From the IMG/VR virus record IMGVR_UViG_3300033062_000614: DNA of 64,000 nucleotides; one strand, 5' to 3'. The translations under genes were made by a program, and so were the position numbers. Below the pieces are notes generated by a model. The model was given only the letters and a program-made list of their open reading frames with translations. It did not search any database and was not told the DNA's origin. The DNA comes from a virus (taxonomy: Duplodnaviria; Heunggongvirae; Uroviricota; Caudoviricetes). Shown in pieces: positions 27,827 to 57,287 of the stretch (its first letter is position 1; each line of letters opens with the position of its first letter).

Positions 27827-28057
27827 ATGGACGCTAACGATTTACTAAGACAACAGATAATTGAAAAGACTCTGCCCGCATCTGCCTCCAAAGAAGAGAA
27901 AGTTGAGGGGTCTTCTGCCGCCTCAGGAGACCTCCTCAGCCAATCTCTCAAGCTAAGAGAAGATATTGAAAAGCGAGAAGAGGCGGATAAGAACAAGCTG
28001 CGGGAGAATTTCATAAAGAATGTTAACATAGATTTGATAAAGGGGATTATGAGATGA
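27827..28057 (+). CDS. hypothetical charged protein
   Basis: ATG start, ATGA coupling to the next gene. Confidence 0.35.
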   Translation: MDANDLLRQQIIEKTLPASASKEEKVEGSSAASGDLLSQSLKLREDIEKREEADKNKLRENFIKNVNIDLIKGIMR

Positions 28058-29043
28058 AAGAACTAGTCAAAGATTTGGTAAAGTTGTATGAGGGTCAAGA
28101 GCTTGAAGAGTCAAAGAAAGTTCTCCAAGCTGTTGCTCTACTCAAAGCCAAAGCTGGAGGAACTGCCGAAGAAAAGGTCAGCTTCTTGAAATCCAAAGGC
28201 TACTCAGACAATGAGATTATGGATGCCTTGAAGATGATTAAGGAGTCTTTGGATGATATGGAAGAGGCAGCCAAGAAGAAAAGCAAAGACCCAAAAGAGG
28301 ACATTGAGAAGCAGTTGCACTCTATGGGCTTCAAGAAGTCTGTTGCCAAAGGGCTAGCTCCTTCAGTCAAGAATATTGAAAAGATGAAGGTTGGAAAGGT
28401 CTATACAATTGGAGAAGCTCAACAGATTACTAGGGAAGAGCTTAAGAAGTTGAAAGATAAGTATGGGGCAAACGATTGGAACGACCAGGAGTTTGTTGAA
28501 TGGTATCGAAGAAATCACGGCACAGGCTACGAGATTGAGATTGTTGAAGCTATAGATTGGAAGAAGATACTTGCATCAGCTGCTATTATAGGGGCTTTGG
28601 CTACCGTGCCTGTTAAGGGATATGCTGAAGATGCGAACGTTGCTGACCTCTTCAACTTCCTTGGTAGGGTTGTAAATACTGTCCAAACTGCAAGAGGGGG
28701 CAACGCTGGGATGACTGACATTCTTGGAGCTATGACAGGTCAACAGACTTCTACAACAGGTGGATACTACGGAGGCTATGGAACACACCAAGCTACCCAA
28801 GGCTATGCAGTTTGGGGAGGCACAAGCGACCAAATGGTCTGCACTAGAGCAAATCAAGCAGATGTTGGAAAATACTTCAAGGTAATCAACCAGTCCGACA
28901 ACTCCGAGGTTGTAGTAAAGTGCACAAACGCAGATTCTACTCTGGGTAGGAATGTTGTAGTATCTCTAAGCCGAGGAGCCTTCGCACAGATTTCAGACTT
29001 GAACCAGAGTTCCGTATACGTAACAATACAAGAGGTTGACTAA
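28054..29043 (+). CDS. hypothetical virion-associated protein with CTS-like N-terminus
   Basis: N-terminus 'MKELVKDLVKLYEGQELEE' is a member of the shared N-terminal motif family. Gly/Thr-rich middle 'GQQTSTTGGYYGGYGTHQATQGYAVWGG'. Confidence 0.5.
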   Translation: MKELVKDLVKLYEGQELEESKKVLQAVALLKAKAGGTAEEKVSFLKSKGYSDNEIMDALKMIKESLDDMEEAAKKKSKDPKEDIEKQLHSMGFKKSVAKGLAPSVKNIEKMKVGKVYTIGEAQQITREELKKLKDKYGANDWNDQEFVEWYRRNHGTGYEIEIVEAIDWKKILASAAIIGALATVPVKGYAEDANVADLFNFLGRVVNTVQTARGGNAGMTDILGAMTGQQTSTTGGYYGGYGTHQATQGYAVWGGTSDQMVCTRANQADVGKYFKVINQSDNSEVVVKCTNADSTLGRNVVVSLSRGAFAQISDLNQSSVYVTIQEVD

Positions 29044-29228
29044 TGAGAAAACTCTTAGAAAAAGTCCAAGATGCTGTAGTAGTAACTGAAGCTCGTCATT
29101 TCAAGACTAAAGAAGATTTCATTAACTTCTTAAAGAATACATTGATTCCAGATTTAAGAAGGTCTGGAACTAACGAAACTGCGGACGATTTTGAGGAAGC
29201 TATATACTGGATGACGAAGGGTGCTTAA
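29043..29228 (+). CDS. small protein with CTS-like N-terminus
   Basis: 'MRKLLEKVQD…'. TAATG coupling. Confidence 0.45.
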   Translation: MRKLLEKVQDAVVVTEARHFKTKEDFINFLKNTLIPDLRRSGTNETADDFEEAIYWMTKGA

Positions 29229-29229
29229 T

Positions 29230-29496
29230 ATGAGACAGCTGTTTGAGATATTACTAGAGGTTGCTAAATACAACTACTCAAGTCTTGCTGATGAAGTAGG
29301 GCTTAGTGATGAAGTAAAAGACAGGTTCATCAGGTTTATGAAAGTCCGCTTTCCTAACAAGGAAGGCACCGATTGGGGCTATCACGAAACTTGGGCTCAA
29401 AGGTTCAAGAGGGGCGAGGAGTGGGAGTTCTCAGACTCCGAAAGCCGTGTAGCCTTACAGGTTGTAGATGCGAATTATTACGCAAACAAGAAATAA
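29230..29496 (+). CDS. small protein with CTS-like N-terminus
   Basis: ATG 29230 directly after the upstream stop gives 'MRQLFEILLEV'. The track GTG start at 29221 overlaps the upstream gene. Confidence 0.45.
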   Translation: MRQLFEILLEVAKYNYSSLADEVGLSDEVKDRFIRFMKVRFPNKEGTDWGYHETWAQRFKRGEEWEFSDSESRVALQVVDANYYANKK

Positions 29497-30017: not shown

Positions 30018-30035
30018 AGAAAAAGGAGAATTAGT

Positions 30036-30233
30036 ATGAAGGGTAAAGTGAAGTGGTTCAGCAATCAGAAAGGGTATGGGTTCATCAGCACAGAAGAAGG
30101 CAAAGATGTGTTCGTGCACCATACCTCAATCTTAGGCGAAGGCTACAAGACATTGGCAGAAGGGCAAGAAGTTACGTTCGAGGTTGAATCTACAGCAAAG
30201 GGCGAGCAAGCAGTAAAAGTCAGCAAGTTGTAA
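30036..30233 (+). CDS. Cold-shock protein (CspA family)
   Basis: '[32 protein letters not shown]…EGQEVTFEV…KGEQAVKV' carries the RNP1 'KGYGFI' and RNP2 'VFVHH' motifs. 65 aa. RBS AAAAGGAG. Confidence 0.85.
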
Positions 30234-30253
30234 ATAACCAAGGAGGAGAAGAG

Positions 30254-31117
30254 ATGAAGAAGTTAATGGTAATACTGCTAGCGATGCTTCTGATGACTTC
30301 AGGTATTGCACTAGCAGAGGTTACAAAGTTTGACAAGAAGAATCTGGAGTTTGGATTAGAGTATAACTACGCAGACAAGGATATCCAAGATGTTGAGCTT
30401 TTGTCTGTCAACATCCCTGATGTGTTGAATGGCAATCTGGTTTTGGTAAACCAGAAACTCCATCTCAACCAAGAGTTGGCTACAGTAGGCTACAAACTTG
30501 GGGACTTGTTGACCCCGTATGCTATACTAGGTATTTCACAATTGAATGGAAATACAAGATTGAATGGCGACATAGCTACCGAATGTTGGAGTGCTGGAGC
30601 GACCTTACTTGAAATACCTTACAACAAGGGCGGTTCTGCATTCACTTATGGCTTGGGAGCAAAAGGCAACCTATTGGAACTTCCTGCTCAAGTAATCCTT
30701 GGCTATGATGTAAGAATGACGACATTCAAAGGTGACTCAAATAACAATATAGTGCTTTTGCCTGGCGATTGTGGATTTGAGCTAGGTGCAAAGAAAGAAA
30801 TCAAATACTTGGAATTGAACACATTGCTCTCTGCAAGTAGAGAGTTCAAACTTACAAACAAGGACGGTTCTGACCGTAAGTATCTTCAGTCTATTACCCC
30901 GATGTTGGGTTTCAAATATAGCAGGGTTGACATCAATGGCAAGACTACAGTCAATATAGAGGACGCAACTGTTGCATCTGAACAGAATGTAAAGGGTGAC
31001 CTGTATTCTGCAGTTGTGGGAGTAAGCTGTAAAGTTACAAGCAACATAGATGTAAAGGCAACTGGTTCGTTTGGCGGTGACAAAGGGTTTGGAGTAGCAG
31101 CAACTTACAGATTCTAA
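30254..31117 (+). CDS. Secreted outer-membrane β-barrel-like protein
   Basis: Signal peptide 'MKKLMVILLAMLLMTSGIALA|EV'. Alternating hydrophobic/polar β-strand patterning. C-terminal 'GVAATYRF' ends in Phe, the OMP β-barrel C-terminal signature. RBS AAGGAGGAG. Confidence 0.5.
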   Translation: MKKLMVILLAMLLMTSGIALAEVTKFDKKNLEFGLEYNYADKDIQDVELLSVNIPDVLNGNLVLVNQKLHLNQELATVGYKLGDLLTPYAILGISQLNGNTRLNGDIATECWSAGATLLEIPYNKGGSAFTYGLGAKGNLLELPAQVILGYDVRMTTFKGDSNNNIVLLPGDCGFELGAKKEIKYLELNTLLSASREFKLTNKDGSDRKYLQSITPMLGFKYSRVDINGKTTVNIEDATVASEQNVKGDLYSAVVGVSCKVTSNIDVKATGSFGGDKGFGVAATYRF

Positions 31118-31235: not shown

Positions 31236-31571
31236 ATGTTTAGACAACTATTTGGATTACTAGAACATACAATCGAAGAGGTTGAAGAAGATTTGACTGA
31301 CCTCATAGAAATACAATCTAGCGAACCTTCGGTCAAAACGGATGAGTATATGCGGGGTCTTGCCAATGGGTTGATATGTGCAAGAAATTGTGTCAATCAG
31401 CTAGACCCTGTTTACATAGAGAACAAGGTAGAGGAATATACGATGTCTAAGAAAGACTTGATTGATATGCTAGTCAGTCAAGGTAAGTCTTGGGATGCTA
31501 TTATAGCTAGAATACCTGCCTTCAAAGGCGACAAAGAGGCAAAAGAGATTTATCAAGGACTTGTAAAATGA
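31236..31571 (+). CDS. hypothetical protein with CTS-like N-terminus
   Basis: 'MFRQLFGLLEHTIEE'. Confidence 0.45.
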   Translation: MFRQLFGLLEHTIEEVEEDLTDLIEIQSSEPSVKTDEYMRGLANGLICARNCVNQLDPVYIENKVEEYTMSKKDLIDMLVSQGKSWDAIIARIPAFKGDKEAKEIYQGLVK

Positions 31572-32026
31572 GAGAGCTTATAGAAAAACTTCAAGGTATA
31601 CCTGACTTAACAGAAAACTATGGCGAGATAGTAGTTCCAAAAGCAGGTATGAAAGCCCACTATGGAGAAGTCCTTGGGGTCTTTTGGTATGATACTAAGT
31701 CCAATAAGTTGGACTATTCTTCAGGCTCTGCAGGTCACGATACCTTCAAGGACTATAAGGAATACTTCAAGACTCCTGGTATGGTTCGGGGACGTTTAGG
31801 AAGAGATGAAGATGGCACAATCTACATATTGATATACGTTGGAGATTTTGAAGGTAGACCTCTGGCTGGCGATACTATACTAGATTTGTATAAACAAGTA
31901 TCAGAAGTCTCCAAGGTTCATATAAACTTTGTGGTAGATGAATTAGGTAGGGATTTGATAGAAGGCAACTTAAAAGAACAGGGCTTCGTTGGGGGAGTTG
32001 GAGCTCCTGGGATTGGCGGACTATGA
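31568..32026 (+). CDS. hypothetical protein with CTS-like N-terminus
   Basis: 'MRELIEKLQGIPDL'. ATGA coupling. Confidence 0.5.
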   Translation: MRELIEKLQGIPDLTENYGEIVVPKAGMKAHYGEVLGVFWYDTKSNKLDYSSGSAGHDTFKDYKEYFKTPGMVRGRLGRDEDGTIYILIYVGDFEGRPLAGDTILDLYKQVSEVSKVHINFVVDELGRDLIEGNLKEQGFVGGVGAPGIGGL

Positions 32027-32298
32027 GAAAACTACTAGAGAAGACTTTGAAGATTCAATTGGTTGAGAAGACTTCTATACCTCCAGATATGCAGAGAGAG
32101 CTAGAAGACTATGAGTTACACGTAGCTTCTGATATTGGAGAAGTGCCAGTAAACGCTAAGGGCGATACGGTTGATAAACTTGTGGCTTGGTGGAGAGCTA
32201 ACGGCAAGCAGATTCTAGAGCTTGAAGACCAACTTGCCAATGACGTAATCAAACCCTCAGAATATGACGTAAAGCTAAAGGCTTTGTTAAAGAAATGA
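32023..32298 (+). CDS. hypothetical protein with CTS-like N-terminus
   Basis: 'MRKLLEKTLKIQL'. ATGA coupling. Confidence 0.5.
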   Translation: MRKLLEKTLKIQLVEKTSIPPDMQRELEDYELHVASDIGEVPVNAKGDTVDKLVAWWRANGKQILELEDQLANDVIKPSEYDVKLKALLKK

Positions 32299-32549
32299 CA
32301 AAGATTAGAAAGCTATACGAGTTTCTCAAAGAGTCATTGGATTGGAAAGATGTAGAGCCGTATTGGTTCAAGGTCAACGACAAGCTCGAAGGCAAGAAAG
32401 ATTGGGAAGACGAGAAGTCCGCAGCTTACGAAGGCGGTGACGTAGACAACATCTTTGACCTGTTCCATACTAATAGAAGTGTAGCAATAGACCTTATCAA
32501 TATGGGGCTCAAGATGCTTGGCTCGAAAGAGCAATTGCCTTATGGATAG
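32295..32549 (+). CDS. hypothetical protein with CTS-like N-terminus
   Basis: 'MTKIRKLYEFLKESLD'. ATGA coupling. Confidence 0.45.
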   Translation: MTKIRKLYEFLKESLDWKDVEPYWFKVNDKLEGKKDWEDEKSAAYEGGDVDNIFDLFHTNRSVAIDLINMGLKMLGSKEQLPYG

Positions 32550-34150: not shown

Positions 34151-34151
34151 T

Positions 34152-36234: not shown

Positions 36235-36752
36235 TGAAGAATCTTCTAAATATAACTTTGGGTGTTGCGGCAGTTGTGTCAGCAATACCACAAACACAGC
36301 CTCCTATTACCCTAGCTGAGAGAGGTATCAACACACAAAAACTGCTTGATGCCGTAAAGCTGGTAGAGTCAAATGGAGGAAAAGATACCGAGCCTAGATT
36401 CGAATATTCGGTATACCGCAAGCTACGCAGAGACTACAACATATTGAGACCGCATATACAAGAAGCTATACAGAAATACGGCTTCAAGAAGTTGGCGACC
36501 TCGTATGGACCATATCAAGTCCTTGGTTCGACTGCGGTATTCCTAGGCTTCGAGGGTGACCCTAGAGAGCTAATGCAAGAGTCCGTCTGTAAAGAGTGGG
36601 CATCCCGATACGTTAGGTATCTGATTTCCTCGGATAAGACTCATAGCCTAACCGATGTCGTATCGGCATACAATGCAGGGCTAGGTGGCATAGGTAAAAA
36701 TCCAGACTATACAAATAGAATTCTAGAATGCTATAAGGGAGGCGATAAATGA
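36234..36752 (+). CDS. Secreted lysozyme-like/lytic-transglycosylase-like protein (putative)
   Basis: Signal peptide 'MKNLLNITLGVAAVVSAIPQ'. 'LVESNGGKD…YGPYQV' weakly resembles the SLT/GH23 E-S…G…YGLMQ motif. Confidence 0.35.
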   Translation: MKNLLNITLGVAAVVSAIPQTQPPITLAERGINTQKLLDAVKLVESNGGKDTEPRFEYSVYRKLRRDYNILRPHIQEAIQKYGFKKLATSYGPYQVLGSTAVFLGFEGDPRELMQESVCKEWASRYVRYLISSDKTHSLTDVVSAYNAGLGGIGKNPDYTNRILECYKGGDK

Positions 36753-39700
36753 AAGGGCTTTATGATTTCCTAAAAGAAGGAGATAACATATTTGAAAAGA
36801 CATATACTTGGGGCTATGAGGTCTTGAAAGCTCCAGAAGGTGGACCAGGGACTGCCACATTGAAGAGCACTATAAAGGGCATTCCTGGCGTAAGACTTGT
36901 AACCTTCCCTTCTGCTTATATGGGTCATACATCTGTTAGAATCACTGCCAATTCTAGAGAAGCCCTTTCTAAAGCCCTTACTATATTACAAGATTATGGC
37001 TACATTGACAGTGTTGCCGATGGAATGAGAAGCGTAACATCAGAAGCAGAATATGATGCCCATCAACCTGCTGACGTTGCTGCGGGCAAGGAAGTTGCTA
37101 GTCAATCTGCTGAGTTTCACAAAGCCCACGAACAGGTCTTTGGAAGTTCCTCTGGTGGAGCCCAAGATGTGCAAGAAACTGGAGAGATGGGTCACGGTGA
37201 TATTACACAAGGTGGGGAAGATTATGAGTGGGCAAAGGCTATTGAGGAGGACGTCAAGGAGATAGAAAAGATTACAAAGGGTAAGTTGAAATTTGAGGGT
37301 ATGAAGCCCTTCGACAAATACCGTGGTCCATATGCTGCTACTAGCTTAGGTAGGATTTGGGATGCAGGAGTTGAAGGTGAGAAATACTTGTTTATGGAAA
37401 ACTCCAACTGGGTTGGCACAGCCCAAGAGCTAGCACAAGCAATCAATGGAGATGCGACCGCTAGGGCTTTAGTAGTCAACCAAGCCAAGACCGCTGCTGG
37501 AGAGCCTACCGAACCTGACTTTAACCCTGCCCAAATGAAGTTCCCCTTCGCTGAGTCCTGTGTCAAGAGTATTAAAGAAGCAGACATAGACAAATATACC
37601 AAGCACGAGGAATATACTCCTGAAGAGTTTGACAAAAGGGGATTCTATCTTTCAGATGACCAGAAGAAAACCGTAGAGACTGCTAAAGCGGAGGGCAAGA
37701 AACTGTTAGCTTCTATCTCTTACCTACCTTTTGGAAACTATCTTATGCATCTGTCTATAATAGAGGGCAAGGTTCCTAACCCTAAAGATACCGAAGACAA
37801 GCAAAGGCAAGATATGACTGAAGCCCTTGACCCTAGAATACCCGACCAAGCAATTGACTTTCGGTATATCTCTGGAACCAAGACCTTCAAGAACGGCACG
37901 AAAGAGTATAACTTGTTAAATGCTCTAGAAGATAAGGCTTGGGAAGACTACTTAGATGTTATGGCAGGGTCAGGCACTACGGTTGAATACGACCTCGTCA
38001 GAGATGTCTTTACTGCTAGTAATGTAGTAGGGGAATCTACTAAGCGGTCAAAGTCTGCTAAGGTATTGAGAGAACAGAAGATAAACGAACAAGAACCCCC
38101 GCCAGAACCAGCTCCAGAGACAGGTGCAGAGATACCAGAAGAGCCAACCCTAGAAGAGCCTCCTGCAGAGCCTCCTAAAGAAGAGAAACCTAAAGAAGAG
38201 GAAGAGCCTAAGAAAGAGGAGCCTGTCAAGGAGAAACCCTCATACACTAAGGAATACTTCGGGTCAAAAGGAACTGATAAGCACTATTACTTTATCCACA
38301 AGATGACCGAAGATGGTATGACGGTTGACGATTTACAAGTCCTTGATATTGAGGATAACATAGTCTTCTCCGCCAAAGAAAAACAAATGGATGTATTAGG
38401 TGAGAGGGCTTTCTTGAAAGCAGCAGCTGAAGCTACAGGCATAGATATGATAGCCTATGATGTGGTAATGCGGTATAAAATGCTTGAAGAGGAGCCTCCT
38501 TTGGAAGAGAAACCCGAAGACGAAGTGCCTGAGTTAAAACCCAAAGAGGAGGAAAAACCCGAACAGAAGTCTGAGCCAGAAGTTGGACCAAAGAGTGAAG
38601 AGGAGGCTCCTCCCAAAGAAAGCTTTAAGCGACCCGCCAAACAAAAGATTGAGGAAGGTTACGAGCAGATTGGTTCAGGTAAGTTACCTAACAAGTATTA
38701 CGTAACAGGCTCTGGCGATTACTATATGATGGTAAAGAGAGGCACGCTTGACTGGGCTTCTGAGCAACTTAAAGACTTCAAGCCTAAGTCTAAGAAGTAT
38801 GGGGTATTCAATACCTATAAAGAGGCGACTGCTGCAGTAGATACCGCATCAGCCTCAGAGTTTGGTAGTGAACCTAATCCTGCAGGTATCAATACTATAA
38901 CTGTTGAAGACCATTTGACAGGAGAGCTTCTACACTATGGGTTTGTTGCCTATAAGCAAGCTGGGTATCGCTATGAGATTGAGCAGTTTGGCGATACTAA
39001 GTTTACAGCAGAGAAGATGAAACAAGCTGGGCAGACCTTTGAGACTGGAGACAGTCCTGGTCCAGAGAAGTGCGTAAAGTGCGGAGTTCATATTGGCACT
39101 AAGGTAGCACAGAACTTCGGTGGCAAGTGTCCTGAGTGTTGGGAAGAGGACGAGAAGGCTGCTGGAAAAATGGACGAAGCCAAGCTTCCTAAGGTAGTCC
39201 TTGCAGACTTGAAGAAGCTTATGTCTGAGCCGTATGACGAGATTGCTCACAAGCTAGATGTATCTCACGAAACCGTCAAGGCTCTGCTTCAGGCTCTTAT
39301 GGTGCACGCTGAGGGAGAGAAAGAATCAATCTATGACAAGAAGCTTAAAGAGGGCACTTGGGCTACTCCAAATACTCAAGCTAAGAAACAAGCTCTGTTA
39401 GCATTCCTTGATGGGTTAGACGAAGGTGAGCTTGAGCCCTTGGAAGACTTCTTGTATTCTAAGCTCGGAGATGATGAGCTCTTTGATGAACTTGAAGATA
39501 TTGTTAAGCCCGTATGCAAGCCTATTGCTAAGGCTATTAGAAAGAAATTGAAAGACCTCAACATAGTAATAGAGTCCTCGATGGACGAAACTGTAAAGCT
39601 TCGCAAGATGACCGATGATGACCGTATGGGCTTTGCAGGTGCAGAGGGTGAGGCAATGATTGGAGATATACATACCTCGGAGGGTGCAGGTATTGTTATC

Positions 39701-40798
39701 GTAGACCAAGCGGGCATTGCGATTATAATTGGAGATGAGAAGCCGATAGAGTTTCACAAGGAGATGGTATTTGATGATGGTATAAGGCTTGTGCAAGCAT
39801 TCAAAGAGCCCATCAGTATAGACTCCTTGAAGGCTATGGGATTCGTTAACATAACGGAGTCTAAAAAGGAGTCCAAGAAAATGAAAAACTTAAAAGAAGC
39901 TGATGCAGTTCCTGAAAAGGGAGATAATCCTGAAACTACAATACCTGTCTCTGGCACAAAGACCCCAGAGAAAGAACCGAAGAAAGAGGAACAACCTACA
40001 ACTCAAGAGAAACCAGTAGAAGTTGGCGAACCTCAAAATCAAGTAACCGAATTGAAGGACAAAGAGGAGGTGAAGGACAAAGTGAAAGAGGCTAAAGAGA
40101 AGGATATAAAGGATAAGATTACAGAGATATTCAAGTTCCTGGATGAGGAATGGTCGAAGTTTCCAACAAAGGCTGAAGCAATCGCAAAGTTGACTACAAA
40201 GTTCGGTATTGGTGAGGATATGGCAAGGGCAACGCTAGGGGTTGCTGAATACTACAACGGCAAGCTAGACGATGGCACACCCGTAGCAGAGCCTGTGGCA
40301 CCTGCCCCTGCACTAACCCCTGAGCCTCCTCCTGTTGCTCCAGCACCTGTAGCAATGGAAGCAAAGCTACCAGATTTGTCAAAACAGGAAGATGATATCA
40401 AGAAAGCATTGCTTGAAAAGCATCTAGGCAAAAAGGTAGATGAGGATAAAGACAAAGAGGCAAAAGAGAAAGAAGAGAAGGAAAAGAAAGAAAAAGAGGA
40501 AAAGGAAAAGAAAGAGAAGGAAGCTAAGGAAAAGAAGAAAGTCAAAGAAGATGTGCAGGAAGATGTAAATATCAATGTCACAACCGATAAGCAAGATATC
40601 CAAGTTACTGCGGTTGAGGACGGTGGAGTTCAGACTACGGTAGTAGACAAGGCAACTGGTGCAGAGACCGCTGCTGTGGCACCTGCTCCTGAAGTGCCAG
40701 CTGTTGAAGCTCCAGCACCTGTGGAAGAGGAACCTGTTGCGATTGAATGTGAAGAGAGTATTCACAAGTTTATGAAGTCTTTCGGTAATAGAGGATAA
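36749..40798 (+). CDS. Giant (1349 aa) low-complexity virion protein, candidate ejected/internal protein
   Basis: CTS-like N-terminus 'MKGLYDFLKEGD'. Long P/E/K linkers, zinc ribbon 'CVKCG…CPEC', and KE-repeat tract 'KEKEEKEKKEKEEKEKKEK'. The C-terminal module is shared with the ORF at 54060. Confidence 0.6.
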   Translation: MKGLYDFLKEGDNIFEKTYTWGYEVLKAPEGGPGTATLKSTIKGIPGVRLVTFPSAYMGHTSVRITANSREALSKALTILQDYGYIDSVADGMRSVTSEAEYDAHQPADVAAGKEVASQSAEFHKAHEQVFGSSSGGAQDVQETGEMGHGDITQGGEDYEWAKAIEEDVKEIEKITKGKLKFEGMKPFDKYRGPYAATSLGRIWDAGVEGEKYLFMENSNWVGTAQELAQAINGDATARALVVNQAKTAAGEPTEPDFNPAQMKFPFAESCVKSIKEADIDKYTKHEEYTPEEFDKRGFYLSDDQKKTVETAKAEGKKLLASISYLPFGNYLMHLSIIEGKVPNPKDTEDKQRQDMTEALDPRIPDQAIDFRYISGTKTFKNGTKEYNLLNALEDKAWEDYLDVMAGSGTTVEYDLVRDVFTASNVVGESTKRSKSAKVLREQKINEQEPPPEPAPETGAEIPEEPTLEEPPAEPPKEEKPKEEEEPKKEEPVKEKPSYTKEYFGSKGTDKHYYFIHKMTEDGMTVDDLQVLDIEDNIVFSAKEKQMDVLGERAFLKAAAEATGIDMIAYDVVMRYKMLEEEPPLEEKPEDEVPELKPKEEEKPEQKSEPEVGPKSEEEAPPKESFKRPAKQKIEEGYEQIGSGKLPNKYYVTGSGDYYMMVKRGTLDWASEQLKDFKPKSKKYGVFNTYKEATAAVDTASASEFGSEPNPAGINTITVEDHLTGELLHYGFVAYKQAGYRYEIEQFGDTKFTAEKMKQAGQTFETGDSPGPEKCVKCGVHIGTKVAQNFGGKCPECWEEDEKAAGKMDEAKLPKVVLADLKKLMSEPYDEIAHKLDVSHETVKALLQALMVHAEGEKESIYDKKLKEGTWATPNTQAKKQALLAFLDGLDEGELEPLEDFLYSKLGDDELFDELEDIVKPVCKPIAKAIRKKLKDLNIVIESSMDETVKLRKMTDDDRMGFAGAEGEAMIGDIHTSEGAGIVIVDQAGIAIIIGDEKPIEFHKEMVFDDGIRLVQAFKEPISIDSLKAMGFVNITESKKESKKMKNLKEADAVPEKGDNPETTIPVSGTKTPEKEPKKEEQPTTQEKPVEVGEPQNQVTELKDKEEVKDKVKEAKEKDIKDKITEIFKFLDEEWSKFPTKAEAIAKLTTKFGIGEDMARATLGVAEYYNGKLDDGTPVAEPVAPAPALTPEPPPVAPAPVAMEAKLPDLSKQEDDIKKALLEKHLGKKVDEDKDKEAKEKEEKEKKEKEEKEKKEKEAKEKKKVKEDVQEDVNINVTTDKQDIQVTAVEDGGVQTTVVDKATGAETAAVAPAPEVPAVEAPAPVEEEPVAIECEESIHKFMKSFGNRG

Positions 40799-40931: not shown

Positions 40932-41168
40932 ATGGGATACAACCAGCTTCTAGATAGATTAACGGAACAGATTCAAGGCAATACTGTTAGGTTTAAGTTG
41001 AGAGGCGAAGAGGACGAAAGAGTAGGAACAGTAGTTTACTCTGACTACTCAAGAGAGGAAGATACTCTCAACATAGCAGTAAAGTGCTCTTGTGGAGGGT
41101 TGTTTGAGCTTCGAAGAATTGATGGAGATTGGGTAAATGCGGAATATGTTAAAGTTGATAAAGGATGA
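40932..41168 (+). CDS. hypothetical protein
   Basis: ATG start with a weak RBS. Confidence 0.35.
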   Translation: MGYNQLLDRLTEQIQGNTVRFKLRGEEDERVGTVVYSDYSREEDTLNIAVKCSCGGLFELRRIDGDWVNAEYVKVDKG

Positions 41169-41409: not shown

Positions 41410-41410
41410 A

Positions 41411-47074: not shown

Positions 47075-49765
47075 ATGATTGCTCTAAAATCAAGAGTGGT
47101 ATACGAGGGAAAGGAGGGCACGGTAACCCAGCTTTTCCCAAAGATACAGAAATGTATCTTGAGGTTCGATGACGGGAGTCAACGAACCTTGAGGCTTCAG
47201 GACTTTAAGCCCTTTGCATTAAAGGAGAGGATAGTGTCGGTAGCGGAGCTTTTCGAAACCGACCAAACTAAGCTCCCAAAAGGAACGCTTTGTAGAGTCC
47301 GCTATCCTATTGCTAATCTAGGTGTTAAGAACAAAAACAATAGGATGTATGACCGTGCAGTATTTGAAAAGGTTTTATCAGATAAAGAAATAGTAGAGAA
47401 GATTAAGAGCCGATGTCTCTTTGGGGACTTAGAGCACCCAGAAGAGTCAGCTATCAAATTAAACAAAGATACTACCTCTCACATAGTATCGGGCATAGTT
47501 ATTGAAGGCGATGTAGTAAAAGCCGATTTCGATATCCTGCCTACTCCTGCAGGTCAATTCATTGACACTTTACTTAGAGCTGGTTGCCAAGTTGGGACTT
47601 CTACAAGAGCCGAAGGTGAGCTAGAGGAAATCAATGACGAGAAAGACGGCAAGTATTACCGAGTAGTGCCTGAGAGCTATCAGTTTGTTACGATAGACTT
47701 TACAGGAGACCCGTCAACATTTGGCTCAGAGCCAGAGAAGATTATGCGTGCGGTTCAAGGTGAATATGAATCCCATAGAGTTAATAAGGAGGTAGCCCTT
47801 GCAATTCTTGAGAGCTTACATACCGAAGAGGCTACTAAGCTCAGAGATAACATATCAATTGACAAACAACATAAGGGTTGCAAAAATCACGTTGGTGAGA
47901 AGAAGTGCACAGAGTGTAAATGTAAAGAGATTAAAGATGGTGAGGTTATAGATGAGTCAATGAAATGGAATCCTGCTATTGTTATTGATGGAAAGACCTA
48001 CCAGATTGACCGTATAGCTTATACTCTCACTAATGTAGGAGACCCTGCAGATGTTAAGAAGTTTGATGACCTAGACTTAGTAACTAAACAAGCTGTCCTA
48101 AAGCGTATATCTGAGGAAGAGGTTATAGAGCCTGATAAGGATAAGCCTTCTACAGAGCCTATTATAGATAAGAAAAAGGATATTCCACCTCCTAAATGCC
48201 CACTCTGCGGTGAAGATTTAGAGGATGTAGGTAACTATAAGTGGGATTGCCCTTTAGGTTGCTTACCACAAGCTATGGAACTTGGACAAATAGAAGACTT
48301 TGCTAAGCCCTTCAACGAAGCAAAAGGCGACATAGATTACTCCAAACTCTACTATGATAAGGAGATTAAGGTATCTCACCCAGAGGTTGCAGATGGGCGT
48401 GATTTAGAGCTTAGTGTGCAGATTAAAGGAAATGATGGAAGACCTGATGCACAGGTAGGGCACTTTGGTTACAACTTCTGGTTGAGACCGCCCAAGGCGA
48501 TTAAGGGAGAGCCTTATGCTTCTAGGATGGCGTTAGAGAAGGCTATTGAGACAATGCTTAAGCACAAGGGCTTTACGATTAAGGGATGGGTTGAAAAGTC
48601 TGTTGAAGCTAAGGAGATGAAGGAAGCTACCTTATCTCCATCAGAAATCTCCTCAATCTTGTTTACTTATTCTGTAGATGGCTATTGGGCAAAAGATAAG
48701 AAAGGTGAAACTTTATTTATAGGAACTTACGACAAACTCAAGAAAGAGGGTTATCCTGAAGATATGCTTTCCAATGCTATGAAAAATCCAGGACAATGGC
48801 AAGTTGTGGAGAGCAAACTAAAGGAAATGAAGCTTAATCACGAAGGCAAGGAATACTCTGTATATTTACTTGATGATGGAACTATGGATACTGTCATACA
48901 AGTAAATGGAAAAGAAGCTAGATTTGATGGAGAGTATACTGCTCAATATAGGGATAAGGATGGAGCTATGACAGAACAAGGGTTGATAACCTTAGCAAAA
49001 GAAGCTATTGATAGTGGTATGATAGATGAAAGCCAAGTCAAGAAAGCTCTAGCTTGTATCAAAGAATTGAAGATTGAACTTGCTACAGCTATAGCTGAGC
49101 GTGATACGGCTATTTCTAGAGCTAAGGAACGCTTGACTGTCTTGACAGAAAACTATCAAAAAGATGTTGCATCTCTTACAGAAACTCTCAACAAGCAATC
49201 TTCAGAGATTGAACTTATAAATAGCCTAGCAAAGAGTCAAAATGGAATGCTTGTTGAGGCTACTGTTAAGTTTAAGGCATTAGAAGAGAGCTTACAAAAA
49301 CAAAGAGCCGAATTCGAAGCCGAGCTTACAAAAATAAAGGAGGCTAATAATGAAACTATTCGGCAAATTAAAGGAAATCTTGAAAAAGCTATTTCAGAAA
49401 AAACCGAAGCAAACCATAAAGAAATAAATCAATTGAATGAAAAATCGAAACAACTTGTTGATGCCCACACTTTGGAACTCGACAAGACTAAATCTGAGCA
49501 TCAAAAACAAATGCTAAGAAAGTATTACGAGACAGTCCTCAAAGTCTCAGGTCTCAAGCTTACCGAGAAGGCTCTAGCACTTCTAGAAACCTGCCAGAGT
49601 GAGCAAGAGATTGACAGCACTATTGAGGATATAAGGAAAACGCTGAGGGAAAGTTTCTTACACTCTGAGAAATTGACCGATGTGAAAGTTCCTGTGTCTA
49701 CTCTTACGCCTGGTGAGAGTCAAATAAAGAACCAGGTGGGAAAAGCATTTAGTGGAATGAAGTAA
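47075..49765 (+). CDS. Prohead core protease (gp21-like) fused to scaffold-like coiled-coil domain
   Basis: The N-terminal ~230 aa parallel T4 gp21: 'NKNNRMYDRAVFEKV' matches 'NRNKRLYPKRILEKAV', 'LFGDLEHPEES' matches 'ALGELNHPPRAN', 'AGCQVGTSTRAEGEL' matches 'AGWIPGVSSRGLGSL', and 'YQFVTIDFTGDPS' matches 'FKLTVGVDAVWGPS'. The rest is a Zn ribbon plus a long coiled coil, and the gene sits immediately upstream of the major capsid gene. Confidence 0.65.
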   Translation: MIALKSRVVYEGKEGTVTQLFPKIQKCILRFDDGSQRTLRLQDFKPFALKERIVSVAELFETDQTKLPKGTLCRVRYPIANLGVKNKNNRMYDRAVFEKVLSDKEIVEKIKSRCLFGDLEHPEESAIKLNKDTTSHIVSGIVIEGDVVKADFDILPTPAGQFIDTLLRAGCQVGTSTRAEGELEEINDEKDGKYYRVVPESYQFVTIDFTGDPSTFGSEPEKIMRAVQGEYESHRVNKEVALAILESLHTEEATKLRDNISIDKQHKGCKNHVGEKKCTECKCKEIKDGEVIDESMKWNPAIVIDGKTYQIDRIAYTLTNVGDPADVKKFDDLDLVTKQAVLKRISEEEVIEPDKDKPSTEPIIDKKKDIPPPKCPLCGEDLEDVGNYKWDCPLGCLPQAMELGQIEDFAKPFNEAKGDIDYSKLYYDKEIKVSHPEVADGRDLELSVQIKGNDGRPDAQVGHFGYNFWLRPPKAIKGEPYASRMALEKAIETMLKHKGFTIKGWVEKSVEAKEMKEATLSPSEISSILFTYSVDGYWAKDKKGETLFIGTYDKLKKEGYPEDMLSNAMKNPGQWQVVESKLKEMKLNHEGKEYSVYLLDDGTMDTVIQVNGKEARFDGEYTAQYRDKDGAMTEQGLITLAKEAIDSGMIDESQVKKALACIKELKIELATAIAERDTAISRAKERLTVLTENYQKDVASLTETLNKQSSEIELINSLAKSQNGMLVEATVKFKALEESLQKQRAEFEAELTKIKEANNETIRQIKGNLEKAISEKTEANHKEINQLNEKSKQLVDAHTLELDKTKSEHQKQMLRKYYETVLKVSGLKLTEKALALLETCQSEQEIDSTIEDIRKTLRESFLHSEKLTDVKVPVSTLTPGESQIKNQVGKAFSGMK

Positions 49766-49788: not shown

Positions 49789-51210
49789 ATGTCAACGCAA
49801 AAGTTAGTAGAGGCTAGGATGCAGGCAATGCAAGACTCCCGCAGGAAATTGGTTGAGGCTTGGAATCCCTACATCAAAGCCGTGGATACCTATCTCAAGG
49901 AAAAAGAGAATAGGACGATGAATGACATCGAAAAGCAGAACGTGGCAACCTGCTTAGAGAACGCTATGTTGGAATCTGCGGGTAAATCGAAATTGTTCGA
50001 AACTACCTATGCAGAGAATATCTCCTTCTTAGGCGTTCAGCTGCCCGTGATTGCGGCATTGTTACCGAGCCTCGTGCTCAACAAAATCGCAATCGTTCAG
50101 GCATTAGACCGCAGAACAGGTGCTGTCTTTTATCTGGATGTGAAATACGGACAGAGCAAAGGTGCAGTAGGTATCGGGCAGTCAATGATGGCTGCTAAGA
50201 CTGGTCACAATGCTACACTGGCTGGGCGTAGGTATGCCTCAGTGATTGTGGAAGCGGAAGTTGTGACTGGTGGTTCGTTCACCTTAGCTTACAAACCTAT
50301 CGTTCCTGGAACTTTAATCATCACGGCTAACGCTGGTGGTGAAATCCTGACCGATGACGGAGCTGGTAACCTCGTGTCTAACGTGTCGGGTGGTTCTGGT
50401 GCGATTACCTCCTACACCAACGGCACAGTAACTGTGACCTACGGTGGCGGTGGAACAGGTGGTGCAGCAAGCTATCGTTACAACTATGAAAAAGCAACCG
50501 ATGGAGTTCCTTCTGTTGACATCACGTTAACCAATGAGCCGATTTCAGCAATTGACTTCCCGCTTCGTGCTAACTACACGTTGGGGGCTGCGATTGACCT
50601 CGAAAAAGCTCACGGGATGAATCTTGAAGATGAGTTGGTGAAATATCTTGGTGGCGAGATTAAGTTTGAAATTGACCACCTTGGTATTGACTATATTAAG
50701 GATGCCGCAGAGTCAGCCCTTGCTGCAGACCCGATTGGAACTTGGAGTGCTTCAATCGCTGGTACGCAGGAATGGGTGTGGAAAAAGTATCACTTCATTG
50801 ACTACATAGAGAAAGGTAGCAACAACATCTTCTCTAAGACGCTGCGTGCAATGGCTAACTTTATCATCTGTGGTAACACAGCTGCTAGAGTTATCCGCCA
50901 GTTAGAGCCTCATTTCAAGCCGATTGCTGGTCTTGAAAATATCTCTCCGACTGGTCCAATCGAGTTAGGAACCCTCGATGGTCGTATTGTAATCCAAGAC
51001 CCGTTCCTTGACCCGAACAAGTATTATCTTGGATATAAAGGCGACAGCTTCTTGATGGCAGGGTTTATCTATGCACCCTACATCCCGCTGTTTGCTACTA
51101 CAACCTTAATTACTGCAGACCTCAAAGCCCAAAAGGGTTTCTTGAGTGCCGCAGGGTTTAAGGTAATCAATCCTGGTATGTATACATACGGTGTAATTAG
51201 CGGTATATAA
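49789..51210 (+). CDS. Major capsid protein (gp23-like)
   Basis: C-terminal 'YYLGYKGDSFLMAGFIYAPYIPL' parallels T4 gp23 'YFTVGYKGPNEMDAGIYYAPYVAL'. RBS AAGGAGAAA. A strong hairpin follows. Confidence 0.75.
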   Translation: MSTQKLVEARMQAMQDSRRKLVEAWNPYIKAVDTYLKEKENRTMNDIEKQNVATCLENAMLESAGKSKLFETTYAENISFLGVQLPVIAALLPSLVLNKIAIVQALDRRTGAVFYLDVKYGQSKGAVGIGQSMMAAKTGHNATLAGRRYASVIVEAEVVTGGSFTLAYKPIVPGTLIITANAGGEILTDDGAGNLVSNVSGGSGAITSYTNGTVTVTYGGGGTGGAASYRYNYEKATDGVPSVDITLTNEPISAIDFPLRANYTLGAAIDLEKAHGMNLEDELVKYLGGEIKFEIDHLGIDYIKDAAESALAADPIGTWSASIAGTQEWVWKKYHFIDYIEKGSNNIFSKTLRAMANFIICGNTAARVIRQLEPHFKPIAGLENISPTGPIELGTLDGRIVIQDPFLDPNKYYLGYKGDSFLMAGFIYAPYIPLFATTTLITADLKAQKGFLSAAGFKVINPGMYTYGVISGI

Positions 51211-54059: not shown

Positions 54060-55394
54060 ATGAGAGAGTTAGTCACGTTTCTAAGAGAGAATACCGCTGA
54101 AACTAGCAAAGGTATTAAGGAAGAGGTAAAAGGGTTGTATCCTGGGATTGGTATGCAGGAAGAGTTTGTTAAGAGTCACGATATACCTGTTCCAGAGGAA
54201 GTCAAAGAGGCAGAGAAAGTTGAGAAGGTTAAGGTAGTAGGAGATGCTAAGTCAGGAACAGAGCCTATCAAGGAAGATGAAGTAAAGGACGCAGCTAAGG
54301 ATGCTAAGAAAGAGGGTAGGTTTGAGGTTACTGACGAATTGGTTGATGAGGTTGCAAAAGACCTAGAGATTGACTTTGCAGTAGTCAATCGTGACCAGTT
54401 GAAGAGGGGTATGGAAGTTGAACAGGAACATATCTCGCACTTTGAAGACCCGAAGGATATGGCAAACATAGCTCTTGACCATTTGAAAGAAATAGCCGAT
54501 TACTATACGAGGCTAGATGCTATGGAAGCACAGGCTAAACAAGAGCCTCAAGTTCCTCCAGCAGGAGAGCCTGCACCTGCAGAGCCTTCAGCTGAACCGC
54601 CAGTTGCAGAAGAAAGCAAAAAGAAAGACGAAAAAGAGAAGAAAGAGGAAATTAAGGATGCTAAGGTTCCTGATTTGTCTAAGTCTGAAGAAGATATTAA
54701 GATGGCGTTGTTAGAGGCTACTGACGATGCAATCTTGAATGAGTTTGCTTTGATGATGAAGGACGATGCCTTTATGAAAGACCACGTGAATGAGGTTGCT
54801 CCTGAAGGTTGGGAACCAACAGTCAAGGCTATGAAGAAACACAAGGATATTACTAATCCTTGGGCTCTTGCGTATTGGATGAAGAATAAAGGATATAAGA
54901 GCCACGAAGCTATGAATGAGCAGGAATATACCGTTTTAGGAACCTTCTCAGATGAACCTACAGCTAAGGACTTTTCTGCTAAGAATCCTGGAACGAACGT
55001 TTTGACAAACAAGGATGGGAAGTTTGAAGTTGTGAAGATGAAAGAGGCAGTAGCTGAGGCTAAGAAAGACGAGAAGAATGTCAAAGAGATGGAGAAAGCA
55101 GCTAAGTTAGCCAAGGAGAAAGAGGAAAAAGAGGAGAAAGAGAAAAAGGAGAAGAAGGAGAAAGCTAAAGCCAAGGAATCGAAGCTTACACCCGAACAAT
55201 TACTCGATATGGCTGAGAGGTATATTGTAGTTGGGCACCTGCTAAGCAAGGTGGTATCGGAGAAGGCAAAACTCTCTGAAGCCGAGCAGAGCTTCGTTGA
55301 TACGTTTGATAAGGATAAGAAGGCTCTAGCCACGGAGGATAGTGAGTTGATAATCTCCGAAGCTAAGAAGATTTTGGTAGGAGAGAAGAAATGA
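54060..55394 (+). CDS. hypothetical virion protein with CTS-like N-terminus and C-terminal module shared with the giant protein
   Basis: 'MRELVTFLREN'. Pro-rich 'PAGEPAPAEPSAEPPVAEE', then 'KVPDLSKSEEDIKMALLEA' and the KE-repeat 'KEKEEKEEKEKKEKKEK'. These parallel 'KLPDLSKQEDDIKKALLEK' and the KE-repeat in the 36749 ORF. Confidence 0.5.
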   Translation: MRELVTFLRENTAETSKGIKEEVKGLYPGIGMQEEFVKSHDIPVPEEVKEAEKVEKVKVVGDAKSGTEPIKEDEVKDAAKDAKKEGRFEVTDELVDEVAKDLEIDFAVVNRDQLKRGMEVEQEHISHFEDPKDMANIALDHLKEIADYYTRLDAMEAQAKQEPQVPPAGEPAPAEPSAEPPVAEESKKKDEKEKKEEIKDAKVPDLSKSEEDIKMALLEATDDAILNEFALMMKDDAFMKDHVNEVAPEGWEPTVKAMKKHKDITNPWALAYWMKNKGYKSHEAMNEQEYTVLGTFSDEPTAKDFSAKNPGTNVLTNKDGKFEVVKMKEAVAEAKKDEKNVKEMEKAAKLAKEKEEKEEKEKKEKKEKAKAKESKLTPEQLLDMAERYIVVGHLLSKVVSEKAKLSEAEQSFVDTFDKDKKALATEDSELIISEAKKILVGEKK

Positions 55395-55918
55395 GACAAC
55401 TTCTTGAAAGACTGCTAGAAAAAGAGGTATATGCTGAGCTTGAAGATATGCCGTTGAAAAAACAGGCTCTTGTAACTCTTCTAGTTGAAATTCAGAAGAA
55501 GATGGAAGATTTGAAGGCTCGTATTGAAGAGTATAAAGGAAGGCGTGGTAAGATAGAGCCTGATATTCTTAAAGCTCTACACAAACTAGAAGCTAATGGA
55601 GTAAGATTAGGAAAGGTTCTAGTTTTCATAACACAGGGGCGAGGCTTCGCATCTTTCAAGGAAGTTATGGAAGTTGTGCAAAAGGAGATAAGCCCTAAAG
55701 TTGCGAAGCTTTTGAAAGCTACTTATGATGAGCTCTCCAAAGAGAAAACTAGGGGAGAAGAGCTTCGTGTAAAGCTAGGACGTGAAAGTCTGTTAGATGA
55801 GGATTGGAAAGATGTATGGCAGAACATTGTTAATTTCTTTGCCAAAGTTTTCAATCCGTTGTTAGATAGCATATCTGGTTCAATTGAAGATGTTGAAAAA
55901 CTGCTTGGGATAAAATGA
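55391..55918 (+). CDS. hypothetical protein with CTS-like N-terminus
   Basis: 'MRQLLERLLEKE'. ATGA coupling. Confidence 0.45.
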   Translation: MRQLLERLLEKEVYAELEDMPLKKQALVTLLVEIQKKMEDLKARIEEYKGRRGKIEPDILKALHKLEANGVRLGKVLVFITQGRGFASFKEVMEVVQKEISPKVAKLLKATYDELSKEKTRGEELRVKLGRESLLDEDWKDVWQNIVNFFAKVFNPLLDSISGSIEDVEKLLGIK

Positions 55919-56328
55919 CGCCATTAACTATTGCTGTTGATTTTGACAATACGTTGTTCTATATGAACCCCGATAAGGAGATTGTTGGAGAGCCTATAAC
56001 TCATCACATCAAAGCTCTCCAACAACTCTACGGTATGGGTCACACAATTTACATATTCTCAGGCAGACCAGCGGAACAGATTTTACCTGTGCTTCAGCAA
56101 TATAATATACCTGTGCATAGGGTTAATGACGTAGTGCTTGATGCTAGTAAAGAGTTCTATGAGTTACCTAATAGCAAAAAGCCTCACTACGACATACTAC
56201 TTGATGACAAGGCGTTAAACCCTTGGTGGTTTGATACCACAGATGAATTAGTTCAAAACGTTCTTAATATGGGTGATATTGTAAAACGCACTAATGGGAT
56301 TATGGGAGCTTTGAAATGCGGGAGCTAG
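55915..56328 (+). CDS. hypothetical protein
   Basis: ATGA coupling. Confidence 0.4.
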   Translation: MTPLTIAVDFDNTLFYMNPDKEIVGEPITHHIKALQQLYGMGHTIYIFSGRPAEQILPVLQQYNIPVHRVNDVVLDASKEFYELPNSKKPHYDILLDDKALNPWWFDTTDELVQNVLNMGDIVKRTNGIMGALKCGS

Positions 56329-57287
56329 TAACTAGATTATGTGAGATGGAGGAATCTTCTATAGACTTTCCTCAGCCAGAGCTTTGTCCTGCAGTTTGGG
56401 ATAAACAGGATGGGACATATACTCTGAAGCGTGAGGTTGAAAATAAGATTTACTCTATCTTGAGGGAATATCCTCATATCAAACTATTAGATTTGGCTGA
56501 TGAAGTTCATTTGATAGGGTCTATTGGAACGAACCAATATGACGAAGACTCCGACATAGATGTGCATCTAGTTATACCTGATAGCAAGATACCTCCTGCA
56601 AAGTCTAGAGAAGACTGGCAGAAGGATATCAAAAAGTGGTATAAGGATAATCTTGAGAGCCTAGATGCTTTTATAGGAAAACATCCTATTGAGGTTTACT
56701 ATCAGTTGACGCCAGCCCAAGAGATGCTAGCTGATGCCCTTTATGACGTCAAGAATAAGAAATGGTTGAAAGGACCAAAGATTGTTGAGGTTGACTTCAA
56801 CCCTTATTCTGTTTACAAGAACATAATTGGAGAGGTAGGTAAGATTGTAGGAGAAACTGACGACCTTATAGGAGAGCTTAAAAGAGATGTTATTGACTAT
56901 GATGTTATCAAAGGCGGTATAGAGAAGGCTCCTTTAGAGGTCAAAGAGAAATTGAAGGCTATTCTACAATCTAAGCTAGATGAAGTTGAAAAGGATATAG
57001 CAGAGCTTATGGCTAATAAGAAAGAGTGGGTAGATATGAGAAAGTATGCCTCTACCCCTGCTAGTCCAGAACAAGCTCTTGATGATATAGAGTTAATCAA
57101 GCGTTGGGAAAATACCAATGCTCTGTTTAAGTTTATCTCAAGGTATCAGTATATCAAGCTAATCACAGAGCTAGAGAATATGATGGGTAAGGAAATGCAA
57201 ATAGATGACGATGATGTTAGGCGTATAAAGAAGCTTTTGGGGGTCTTGGCTACTGACGCAGAGTATACGCCAAAAGAACAACTATGA
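56316..57287 (+). CDS. hypothetical protein with CTS-like N-terminus
   Basis: 'MRELVTRLCEMEE'. Confidence 0.45.
   Translation: MRELVTRLCEMEESSIDFPQPELCPAVWDKQDGTYTLKREVENKIYSILREYPHIKLLDLADEVHLIGSIGTNQYDEDSDIDVHLVIPDSKIPPAKSREDWQKDIKKWYKDNLESLDAFIGKHPIEVYYQLTPAQEMLADALYDVKNKKWLKGPKIVEVDFNPYSVYKNIIGEVGKIVGETDDLIGELKRDVIDYDVIKGGIEKAPLEVKEKLKAILQSKLDEVEKDIAELMANKKEWVDMRKYASTPASPEQALDDIELIKRWENTNALFKFISRYQYIKLITELENMMGKEMQIDDDDVRRIKKLLGVLATDAEYTPKEQL

Follow-up and report, generated by a model that had tools for sequence, protein, structure and literature searches.

The 64-kb window analysed here, 64,000 nucleotides of the Caudoviricetes record IMGVR_UViG_3300033062_000614, carries every credible gene on its plus strand, and the products of eleven of these genes begin with a similar short leader whose aligned consensus is M-[RK]-[EQK]-L-[LVIF]-x-x-[LV]-x-E. 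Replication and recombination genes fill the first ~25 kb, and structural genes (portal, protease, capsid protein, gp13-like neck gene, sheath and tube) run from 25.9 kb on. The leader-bearing genes and one possible further member are listed below, with the N-terminus of each product and, where given, a slash at the predicted end of the leader.

28054–29043, plus strand: leader gene, 329 amino acids (aa); leader MKELVKDLVKLYE (28054–28092), with a central hydrophobic segment in the body
29043–29228, plus strand: leader gene, 61 aa; MRKLLEKVQDAVVVTE, with LLE at residues 4–6 and VTE at 14–16
29230–29496, plus strand: leader gene, 88 aa; MRQLFEILLE/V, a 10-residue leader
31236–31571, plus strand: leader gene, 111 aa; MFRQLFGLLE/H, an 11-residue leader
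31568–32026, plus strand: leader gene, 152 aa; MRELIEKLQGIPDLTE
32023–32298, plus strand: leader gene, 91 aa; MRKLLEKTLKIQLVE
32295–32549, plus strand: leader gene, 84 aa; MTKIRKLYEFLKE/S, with the motif offset by +3
36749–40798, plus strand: giant acidic multidomain leader protein, 1349 aa; MKGLYDFLKE/G
54060–55394, plus strand: leader gene, 444 aa; MRELVTFLRE/N, with DUF5661 at residues 96–157
55391–55918, plus strand: helical leader gene, 175 aa; MRQLLERLLE/K
56316–57287, plus strand: leader-bearing putative nucleotidyltransferase (NTase), 323 aa; MRELVTRLCE/MEE/SSIDFPQ
40932–41168, plus strand: possible extra member, 78 aa; MGYNQLLDRLTE/Q

Most of the tagged genes have either a plausible Shine-Dalgarno sequence or a start that overlaps the upstream stop codon, and the ATG of 29230 lies three codons inside a GTG-initiated open reading frame (ORF) beginning at 29221. 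The genes fall into two blocks, one starting ~430 nt past the portal gene and the other lying between the neck genes and the sheath. All eleven N-termini quoted in the original prediction are encoded at the starts listed above; the two gene blocks that it described are likewise present, except that the gene for the 1349-aa protein stands apart from both. Two untagged proteins are encoded inside the first block, at 30036–31117: a cold-shock protein of the CspA type and an outer-membrane beta-barrel protein with a signal peptide.

The similarity among these N-termini goes well beyond chance. A post-hoc regular expression, [RK][EQKGR][LI][LIVFY]..[LIVFT], matches 13 of 101 N-termini (~0.6 expected by chance) and 17 internal sites in 20,873 residues. 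In a motif-free test, residues 2–10 of 100 N-termini were compared in all pairs with BLOSUM62 and set against random internal 9-mers: 14 pairs scored at least 18, against 2.2 +/- 1.5 at random (maximum 9 in 1000 draws), and 8 scored at least 21, against 0.7, with a similar outcome when 9-mers following an internal Met served as background. With a leave-one-out position-specific scoring matrix (PSSM), 8 of the 11 members lie above the 99.9th percentile of internal 9-mers (29230 and 32295 score 16.8 and 20.2), the weaker ones being 28054, 36749 (a borderline 5.7) and 31236, which scores low because its motif spacing is one residue shorter; the top-scoring non-member N-terminus is that of 40932. 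By all three measures the motif is enriched at the N-termini of the window relative to internal 9-mers, as the original prediction implied. The tag is also unevenly distributed, being present in 11 of the 58 genes from 25.9 kb onward and in none of the 42 upstream (Fisher p = 0.002).

The codons used for the conserved Leu4 are CTA, CTC, CTG, CTT and TTA, and the constraint therefore acts on the protein rather than on the DNA; a nucleotide-level element is rejected on the same ground. All-against-all BLASTP of the bodies found no significant similarity apart from low-complexity, K/E-rich matches between 36749 and 54060. What had been proposed as a family of proteins sharing a motif is thus better described as eleven proteins with a common tag only: the N-terminal similarity is real, and the bodies behind it are non-homologous. 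In 7 of the 11 an L-x-E closes the 10-residue core, at residues 8–10 in five of them and offset by +1 in 31236 and by +3 in 32295. A Sec or Tat signal peptide, which would show a basic n-region ahead of a hydrophobic core at least 10 residues long, was rejected, as the leaders alternate charged and hydrophobic residues and contain 2–4 acidic ones; N-termini of the window that are truly signal-like, such as MKKLMVILLAMLLMTSG at 30254, differ from them.

The tagged proteins themselves are largely anonymous. Searches of PHROGs, Pfam and PADLOC gave almost nothing beyond DUF5661 and weak NTase matches; the 1349-aa protein had no Pfam, PHROG or PDB match and no recognisable domains, and 28054 yielded a single distant relative in a homologue search and nothing usable in a PDB sequence search. 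The body of 31568 has a homologue in a related contig (L035) with the N-terminus MGKDLLDQLKEE. The 444-aa protein 54060 also holds a widely conserved stretch of ~40 aa beginning 'PEGWEPTVKAMKKH...'. This stretch (residues ~245–283, 'PEGWEPTVKAMKKHKDITNPWALAYWMKNKGYKSH') recurs, mostly at 70–85% identity, in ~55 otherwise unrelated metagenomic proteins of many architectures, several of which begin with N-termini of the MRLHEILSE, MRLRQLFE or MKIGQILE type.

The head genes of the window are of T4 type, and the gp21-like protease, gp20 portal and gp23 capsid gene on which the original prediction leaned are all supported by family matches. The relevant features are as follows.

25930–27621, plus strand: portal protein, T4 gp20 family (Pfam Portal_T4)
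41390–41995, plus strand: 201-aa candidate scaffold or core protein; its 5 [LI]-x-E per 100 residues are the densest of the window
47075–49765, plus strand: protease ORF, 896 aa, with an S77/T4 gp21-family prohead serine protease domain at residues ~69–255
47075, residues 651–896, plus strand: C-terminal coiled coil, [LI]-x-E-rich, fused to the protease
49789–51210, plus strand: major capsid protein, Gp23 family (E = 1e-38)
51303 onward, plus strand: gp13-like neck gene (precomputed Pfam match)

The protease domain of 47075 matches Peptidase_S77 at 37.8 bits (cut-off 27) and phrog_207 at E = 6e-27, and the last 250 residues of the same ORF contain 4.9 [LI]-x-E per 100 residues against 1.5 genome-wide. 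This ORF is presumed to provide both the cutter and the scaffold or receptor for the leader. A Cys-rich insert with several CxxC pairs occupies residues ~268–405, between the S77 domain and the coiled coil. In the capsid protein, candidate maturation sites occur at NAMLE62/S and KLFE71/TT; both are conserved, and alignment to mature T4 gp23* places the predicted end of the propeptide at N-A-M-L-E/S and K-L-F-E/T-T. Every protease ORF of the clade has [LI]-[LIV]-E just ahead of a conserved 'KLPxG' motif, like the LIE-9 of gp21. Taken together, the capsid sites, the tripeptide of the protease ORFs and the [LI]-x-E-rich coiled coil fit a gp21-like specificity. Family searches with 41390 gave no match. 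Directly after the portal gene, two small ORFs at 27673–28057 begin MICLHRYELIIE and MDANDLLRQQIIE, both with I-I-E at residues 10–13; they sit where T4 has genes 67 and 68 and may encode core proteins.

A megablast search of INPHARED (50,697 deposited phage genomes) with 12 kb of the window found no near match. Two JGI samples, 3300039214 and 3300032797, contain the same phage. The census of tagged genes covered the 64 kb of the window, part of a 114-kb contig, and look-ups of flanking genes returned short duplicate contigs only. The nearest cultured capsid proteins, those of Bacillus SP-15, Listeria LIS04 and the Maribacter Colly/Molly phages, are ~30% identical, and metagenomic relatives, from sediments, lakes and similar habitats, are 47–65% identical. 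The phage is therefore a remote and uncultured branch of the lineage with T4-type heads.

The most informative tagged protein is the putative NTase 56316, for which at least 194 homologues were found at 41–67% identity. Weak Pfam matches to NTP_transf_2 and MTPAP-like, together with weak PDB fold matches of an AlphaFold2 (AF2) model (predicted local distance difference test, pLDDT, 85.8) to ANT, LinB, AadA and MNT, indicate a Pol-beta-superfamily nucleotidyltransferase with an ANT/MNT-type fold; a BFVD fold search with the same model returned uncharacterised phage proteins only. The model has a helix at residues 2–10 that is separated from the body, with pLDDT below 50 for residues 1–14 and above 95 in the body from about residue 21. 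The conserved body of the homologues opens 'SSIDFPQxDL', and in 117 of them it is preceded by a leader of 6–19 residues (mostly 10–13) whose N-terminal half reads M-x-x-L-L-E-K-[IL]-L. At the end of the leader (P1), E stands in 107 of 116 sequences and D in 8; P3 is L, V, I, M or F, again in 107 of 116, and P2 is free to vary. In this alignment the junction has the gp21-type (L/I)-x-E pattern, and the pattern lies exactly at the boundary of tag and body. The tag pattern is retained across homologues that are only 40–50% identical.

In 25 homologues, 30–260 extra residues are inserted between leader and body. One insert (P0076) is an 'ADP-ribosyltransferase in polyvalent proteins' domain (ART-PolyVal) and another (P0122) a transmembrane (TM) segment with an SLT lytic transglycosylase, and nearly all insert-bearing homologues keep the MxxLLEKxL leader at residue 1 and the [V/L]-x-E/S junction. 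One homologue (P0177) has the body without a leader. The metagenomic proteins P0123, P0147 and P0131 consist of a leader-tagged ~130-aa domain fused to the NTase with a complete second, internal leader, 'MDLLEKILQVDE/SSIDFP', and so look like polyproteins.

The helical protein 55391 behaves similarly. Of the 16 homologues aligned with it, nearly all open with a short amphipathic stretch that ends in [LIVF]-x-E at residues 8–14 (P0186 has no such stretch), HMMER matches begin only at residues 10–19, and insertions come after the leader; the AF2 model of this family, at a mean pLDDT of 53, was too poor for a fold search. Four larger NTase-bearing contigs have a common gene order of capsid protein, gp13, neck genes, tag block and sheath. 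In one of them, the 179-kb contig L031 (NCBI assembly GCA_019057385.1), five adjacent or nearby genes carry tags of the M-x-E-L-[LI]-E-K type; MFELLEKCLCE and MREIVEKLSNLNE begin two proteins without a recognised function, and the other tags are found on the following cargo.

L031, MYELLEKTLAATKEE: SLT transglycosylase with a TM segment
L031, MHELIEKLHE: rubrerythrin/ferritin-like protein (L031 9690–10004; counterpart at L033 7157–8179), weak EncFtn-like match
L031, MRNLLEKILKE: NTase

The ferritin-like protein reads MHELIEKLHE/AAFVNPFSGM in L031 and MAE/FVNPFSGM, leaderless, in L033, a clean case of leader presence and absence at the predicted boundary. Together with the insertions described above, such comparisons of sequence suggest that the tag is portable as long as it stands at the extreme N-terminus. 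In L033 itself a different flavour, MF-x-x-L-F-E-N-V, is found on at least seven genes. When non-homologous pairs from five genomes were pooled, 61% of the most similar N-termini fell within one genome, against 22% of all pairs; the tag thus drifts in concert within a genome, as expected if all copies must fit one phage-encoded receptor, and these genome-specific flavours fit a tag that has co-evolved with a receptor particular to each phage. At every locus examined, the tag goes together with a protease and head of T4 type. The cultured but distant Maribacter phage Colly_1 has no more than vague resemblances of this kind among its N-termini, and the tag block is therefore not a general feature of phages with gp23-type capsids.

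A further candidate lies in the post-neck block of the 133-kb contig L035, where a 141-aa protein (3697–4122) matches Pfam Tad3, the type I Thoeris inhibitor, at E = 1e-33 from residue 16 and has a 15-aa N-terminal extension, MIDTLELRALLLEE. Tad3 is a ThsB-binding anti-defence protein (PMC13402655). This is a weaker case of leader-bearing cargo, the leader status of the extension being uncertain. Elsewhere in the relatives, inserted zinc-finger or endonuclease-like ORFs split the capsid genes (L002, L003 and L025, at about 8074–10659 in L002; L033 662–2117), which suggests introns, inteins or homing elements.

Several other features of the window deserve a brief record. A sigma-70 region-4 protein encoded at 25127–25768, immediately 5' of the portal gene, may be a late sigma factor; no enrichment was found for the T4 late-promoter consensus TATAAATA, and a tRNA search found none. 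A single 790-aa ORF (4169–6541) combines a family A DNA polymerase with an N-terminal uracil-DNA-glycosylase-superfamily domain and a 3'-5' exonuclease. Another, of 973 aa (9661–12582), joins an Mre11/SbcD-like phosphoesterase to a Rad50/SbcC-like ATPase, functions that in T4 reside on two separate proteins, gp47 and gp46. A 119-aa ORF at 18021–18380 has a type IV prepilin-like N-terminus, MKLKRGFTLVEVLIVVAIISLLAAIAIPNM, corresponding to the cleavage/methylation motif.

We think it probable that the shared N-terminus is a portable, cleavable propeptide that loads proteins into the prohead and works like the capsid-targeting sequence (CTS) of T4. On this hypothesis an amphipathic helix of 10–16 residues (M-[RK]-[EQK]-L-[LVIF]-x-x-L-x-E) at the head of late-expressed, otherwise unrelated proteins would bind the assembling scaffold or core, the likely partner being the coiled-coil C-terminal part of 47075 or another core protein. 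The cargo would be enclosed as the gp23-like shell forms, the gp21-family serine protease would cut after [L/I/V]-x-E and remove the tag, and the freed cargo would stay in the head and be ejected with the DNA into the host. Core binding, cleavage, residence in the capsid and ejection are thus steps that we infer.

A number of observations weigh against this hypothesis. The definition of the motif was partly post hoc. Four members (28054, 29043, 31568 and 32023) have no E at position 10, their first post-leader [LV]-x-E falling at about residues 11–16. Of the 89 non-members, 18 also have a bare [LI]-x-E among their first 13 residues, against ~15% by chance, and the L-x-E tripeptide that the original prediction stressed is therefore not diagnostic alone, whereas the 10-residue pattern as a whole is diagnostic. 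The E conserved ahead of 'SSIDFP' could be part of the folded NTase domain rather than a cleavage site. The Joint Genome Institute (JGI) gene call of 56316 begins at Met11 and omits the leader, although a GGGAG 7 nt upstream and retention of the leader in the closest homologues speak for the longer version. Conserved neck-region proteins of the clade start with a comparable helix, M-x-DL-x-D-x-I-x-EAT, and the pattern may consequently mark virion proteins more broadly. Finally, the PSSM built from the window places T4 IPII/III, gp24, gp67, gp68, gp22 and gp21 at the 93rd to 99.4th background percentile, taking the best of 5 offsets. This is not significant, and the likeness to T4 that the original prediction had proposed is one of format only (~10 residues, with hydrophobic positions at 4/5 and 7/8 and a closing E10); the test lends no support to homology with the T4 CTS (MKTYQEFIAE).

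The main alternative, which we regard as unlikely, is that the helix is an uncleaved tag for docking or assembly elsewhere in the virion (neck, collar, tail or baseplate) or a general oligomerisation handle. It would account for the position of the second leader block between the gp13-like neck gene and the sheath, for the similar helices of neck-region proteins in related loci and for the poor specificity of L-x-E on its own. The leader is, however, only ~10 residues long, where known fibre and spike anchor domains are much longer; the cargo consists of enzymes and small soluble proteins (NTase, SLT, ART, ferritin-like, Tad3) and no fibres; the [LVIMF]-x-E junction is strictly conserved beside the body; and the first block comes right after the portal gene, as do the T4 core genes 67 and 68. 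The helix might instead be read by a partner outside the capsid, such as a host or phage protease, a chaperone or the membrane, and so co-regulate the stability or location of late proteins. Short N-terminal amphipathic Met-basic motifs serve as ClpX recognition signals, and the tag is confined to genes of the late region, but its character is acidic to neutral and not basic or hydrophobic, it is accompanied at every locus examined by the T4-type protease and head, and its genome-specific flavours argue for a partner encoded by the phage. A degron or membrane role would also leave the conserved junction E unexplained, and we consider recognition outside the capsid quite improbable.

Two further explanations fare worse. 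Because A/G-rich early codons give K/R/E/L-rich starts, and AGA, AAA and GAA do dominate positions 2–3, the pattern might be a compositional effect of translation-initiation regions. Just two or three weak look-alikes (15481, 59882 and 40932) are found among the other 89 genes, however; the pair statistics are far beyond the random range, residues 4, 5, 8 and 10 hold to the pattern although their codons vary, and the pattern is conserved across homologues at 40–50% identity. Chance of this kind is very improbable and effectively refuted by the pair statistics, the conservation in homologues and the leave-one-out PSSM. Descent by tandem duplication, with the N-terminus as the best-conserved remnant, would suit the clustering of the genes in two blocks, but the BLASTP comparison of the bodies leads us to reject it, and the sizes (61 to 1349 aa) and differing Pfam domains speak the same way; of paralogy we can say that it is scarcely credible.

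If the capsid-loading hypothesis is nonetheless pursued beyond this window, it may be, and we offer this tentatively, that in a sediment-associated, uncultured T4-like clade the MxELLEKLL-type propeptide is a general cargo-loading tag with which each genome pre-packages a large, fast-changing injected arsenal: NTase, ADP-ribosyltransferase, lytic transglycosylase, ferritin-like proteins, Tad3, the 1349-aa giant and many proteins of obscure function. Packaged and injected proteins are the first-strike weapons of phages (anti-restriction, anti-defence and host take-over enzymes) and are very hard to spot by sequence; beyond the T-even phages, capsid targeting is for the most part deduced from proteomic data on a handful of giant phages. 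Were the hypothesis correct, the tag would allow the 'ejectome' to be predicted in metagenomes from sequence alone, the proteins that uncultured phages inject would become directly predictable and testable, and dozens of obscure proteins would be nominated as early-acting effectors, the Tad3 homologue being one lead. In the lineages with fused, doubly tagged NTases, which keep an internal leader and a [V/L]-x-E site, the head protease would also mature polyproteins, and the leaders could serve, like the T4 CTS, as further tags with which foreign proteins are brought into capsids. To specialists this would be a useful extension rather than a shock. Should the hypothesis fail, there is still an N-terminal signal, strongly conserved throughout the clade, that needs to be explained.

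In the literature we found CTS-type tags for T4 and its close relatives only, long propeptides in phiKZ-like giants and analogies for P1 and SPN3US, and nothing on this leader, DUF5661, this clade or fused forms with an internal leader. The closest comparison is with T4 (sequences from NC_000866), where the CTS of IPI, IPII, IPIII and Alt and the short propeptides that gp21 removes from gp24, gp67, gp68 and gp22 are likewise N-terminal peptides of 10–20 residues on unrelated proteins: MKTYQEFIAE/A in IPII and IPIII, MAKINELLRE/S in gp24, MEGLIEAIK in gp67, MLKEQLIAE/A in gp22 and MNEPQLLIE/T in gp21. In IPIII the first 10 residues suffice for encapsidation, with positions 4 and 7 serving targeting and 8 and 10 processing (PMC9026906), and foreign proteins have already been brought into heads by means of the T4 CTS (PMC3012670, PMC10229621). 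The leaders MRELVTFLRE, MRELVTRLCE, MRQLLERLLE, MRQLFEILLE and MKGLYDFLKE follow the T4 layout, with hydrophobic residues at 4/5 and 7/8 and E at 10. In both phages the protease, portal and capsid protein belong to the gp21, gp20 and gp23 families, the first leader block occupies the place after the portal gene that core genes 67 and 68 have in T4, and the T4 scaffold gp22 is visibly [LI]-x-E-rich, as is the tail of 47075. Both also carry enzymes as cargo or putative cargo, Alt in T4 being an ADP-ribosyltransferase and the window having an NTase, with an ART fusion in a homologue (PMC9026906, PMC3012670). The differences are that at least 11 genes are tagged in 64 kb, against 4 cargo proteins in T4; that the consensus is of the MRELLEKLL type; that the protease is fused to a long scaffold-like tail; and that the leader measures 10–19 aa and four members have no E10. 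In the phage of the window cleavage and packaging are predictions; its host and clade are uncultured, and its capsid protein is only ~30% identical to those of isolates.

In phiKZ-like giants (phiKZ, 201phi2-1 and SPN3US) many head-internal proteins are also cut by a T4-related prohead protease, after x-x-E, and the paralogues gp53 and gp54 of SPN3US have a common extreme N-terminus, MANFVKSKLARESVE (PMC5694885). There, however, P3 is S, A or G and propeptides mostly exceed 100 residues (PMC5694885), whereas P3 here is L, V, I, M or F and the leaders have 10–19 aa; with a hydrophobic P3 and short leaders, we do not assign the tag to the phiKZ-like class of propeptide. Polyvalent proteins (Iyer et al. 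2017) carry ART-PolyVal, SLT and NTase domains, single or fused, and are encoded beside head and packaging genes (PMC5512222); their domains are predicted to enter the cell with the phage DNA (PMC5512222). The ART-PolyVal fusion in P0076 thus links the NTase cargo family to proteins predicted to be delivered in this way (PMC5512222). Two effector domains, the mark of polyvalent proteins, are combined in P0076 (ART-PolyVal and NTase) and P0122 (SLT and NTase), but the tagged proteins of the window mostly have a single domain or none that is recognisable, and what unites them is a short tag rather than a MuF/portal-associated domain or embedded zincin protease. Encapsulin cargo peptides offer an analogy only: there too a short peptide sends diverse cargo, ferritin-like proteins included, into an HK97-fold shell, although those peptides are usually C-terminal and uncleaved and no encapsulin is involved in the window. 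Ferritin-like capsid cargo of the kind suggested for L031 would parallel them. The principle of a peptide that loads cargo into a shell is a known one; the novelty lies in the leader consensus, in how many and how diverse the tagged genes are, and in their spread across an uncultured clade.

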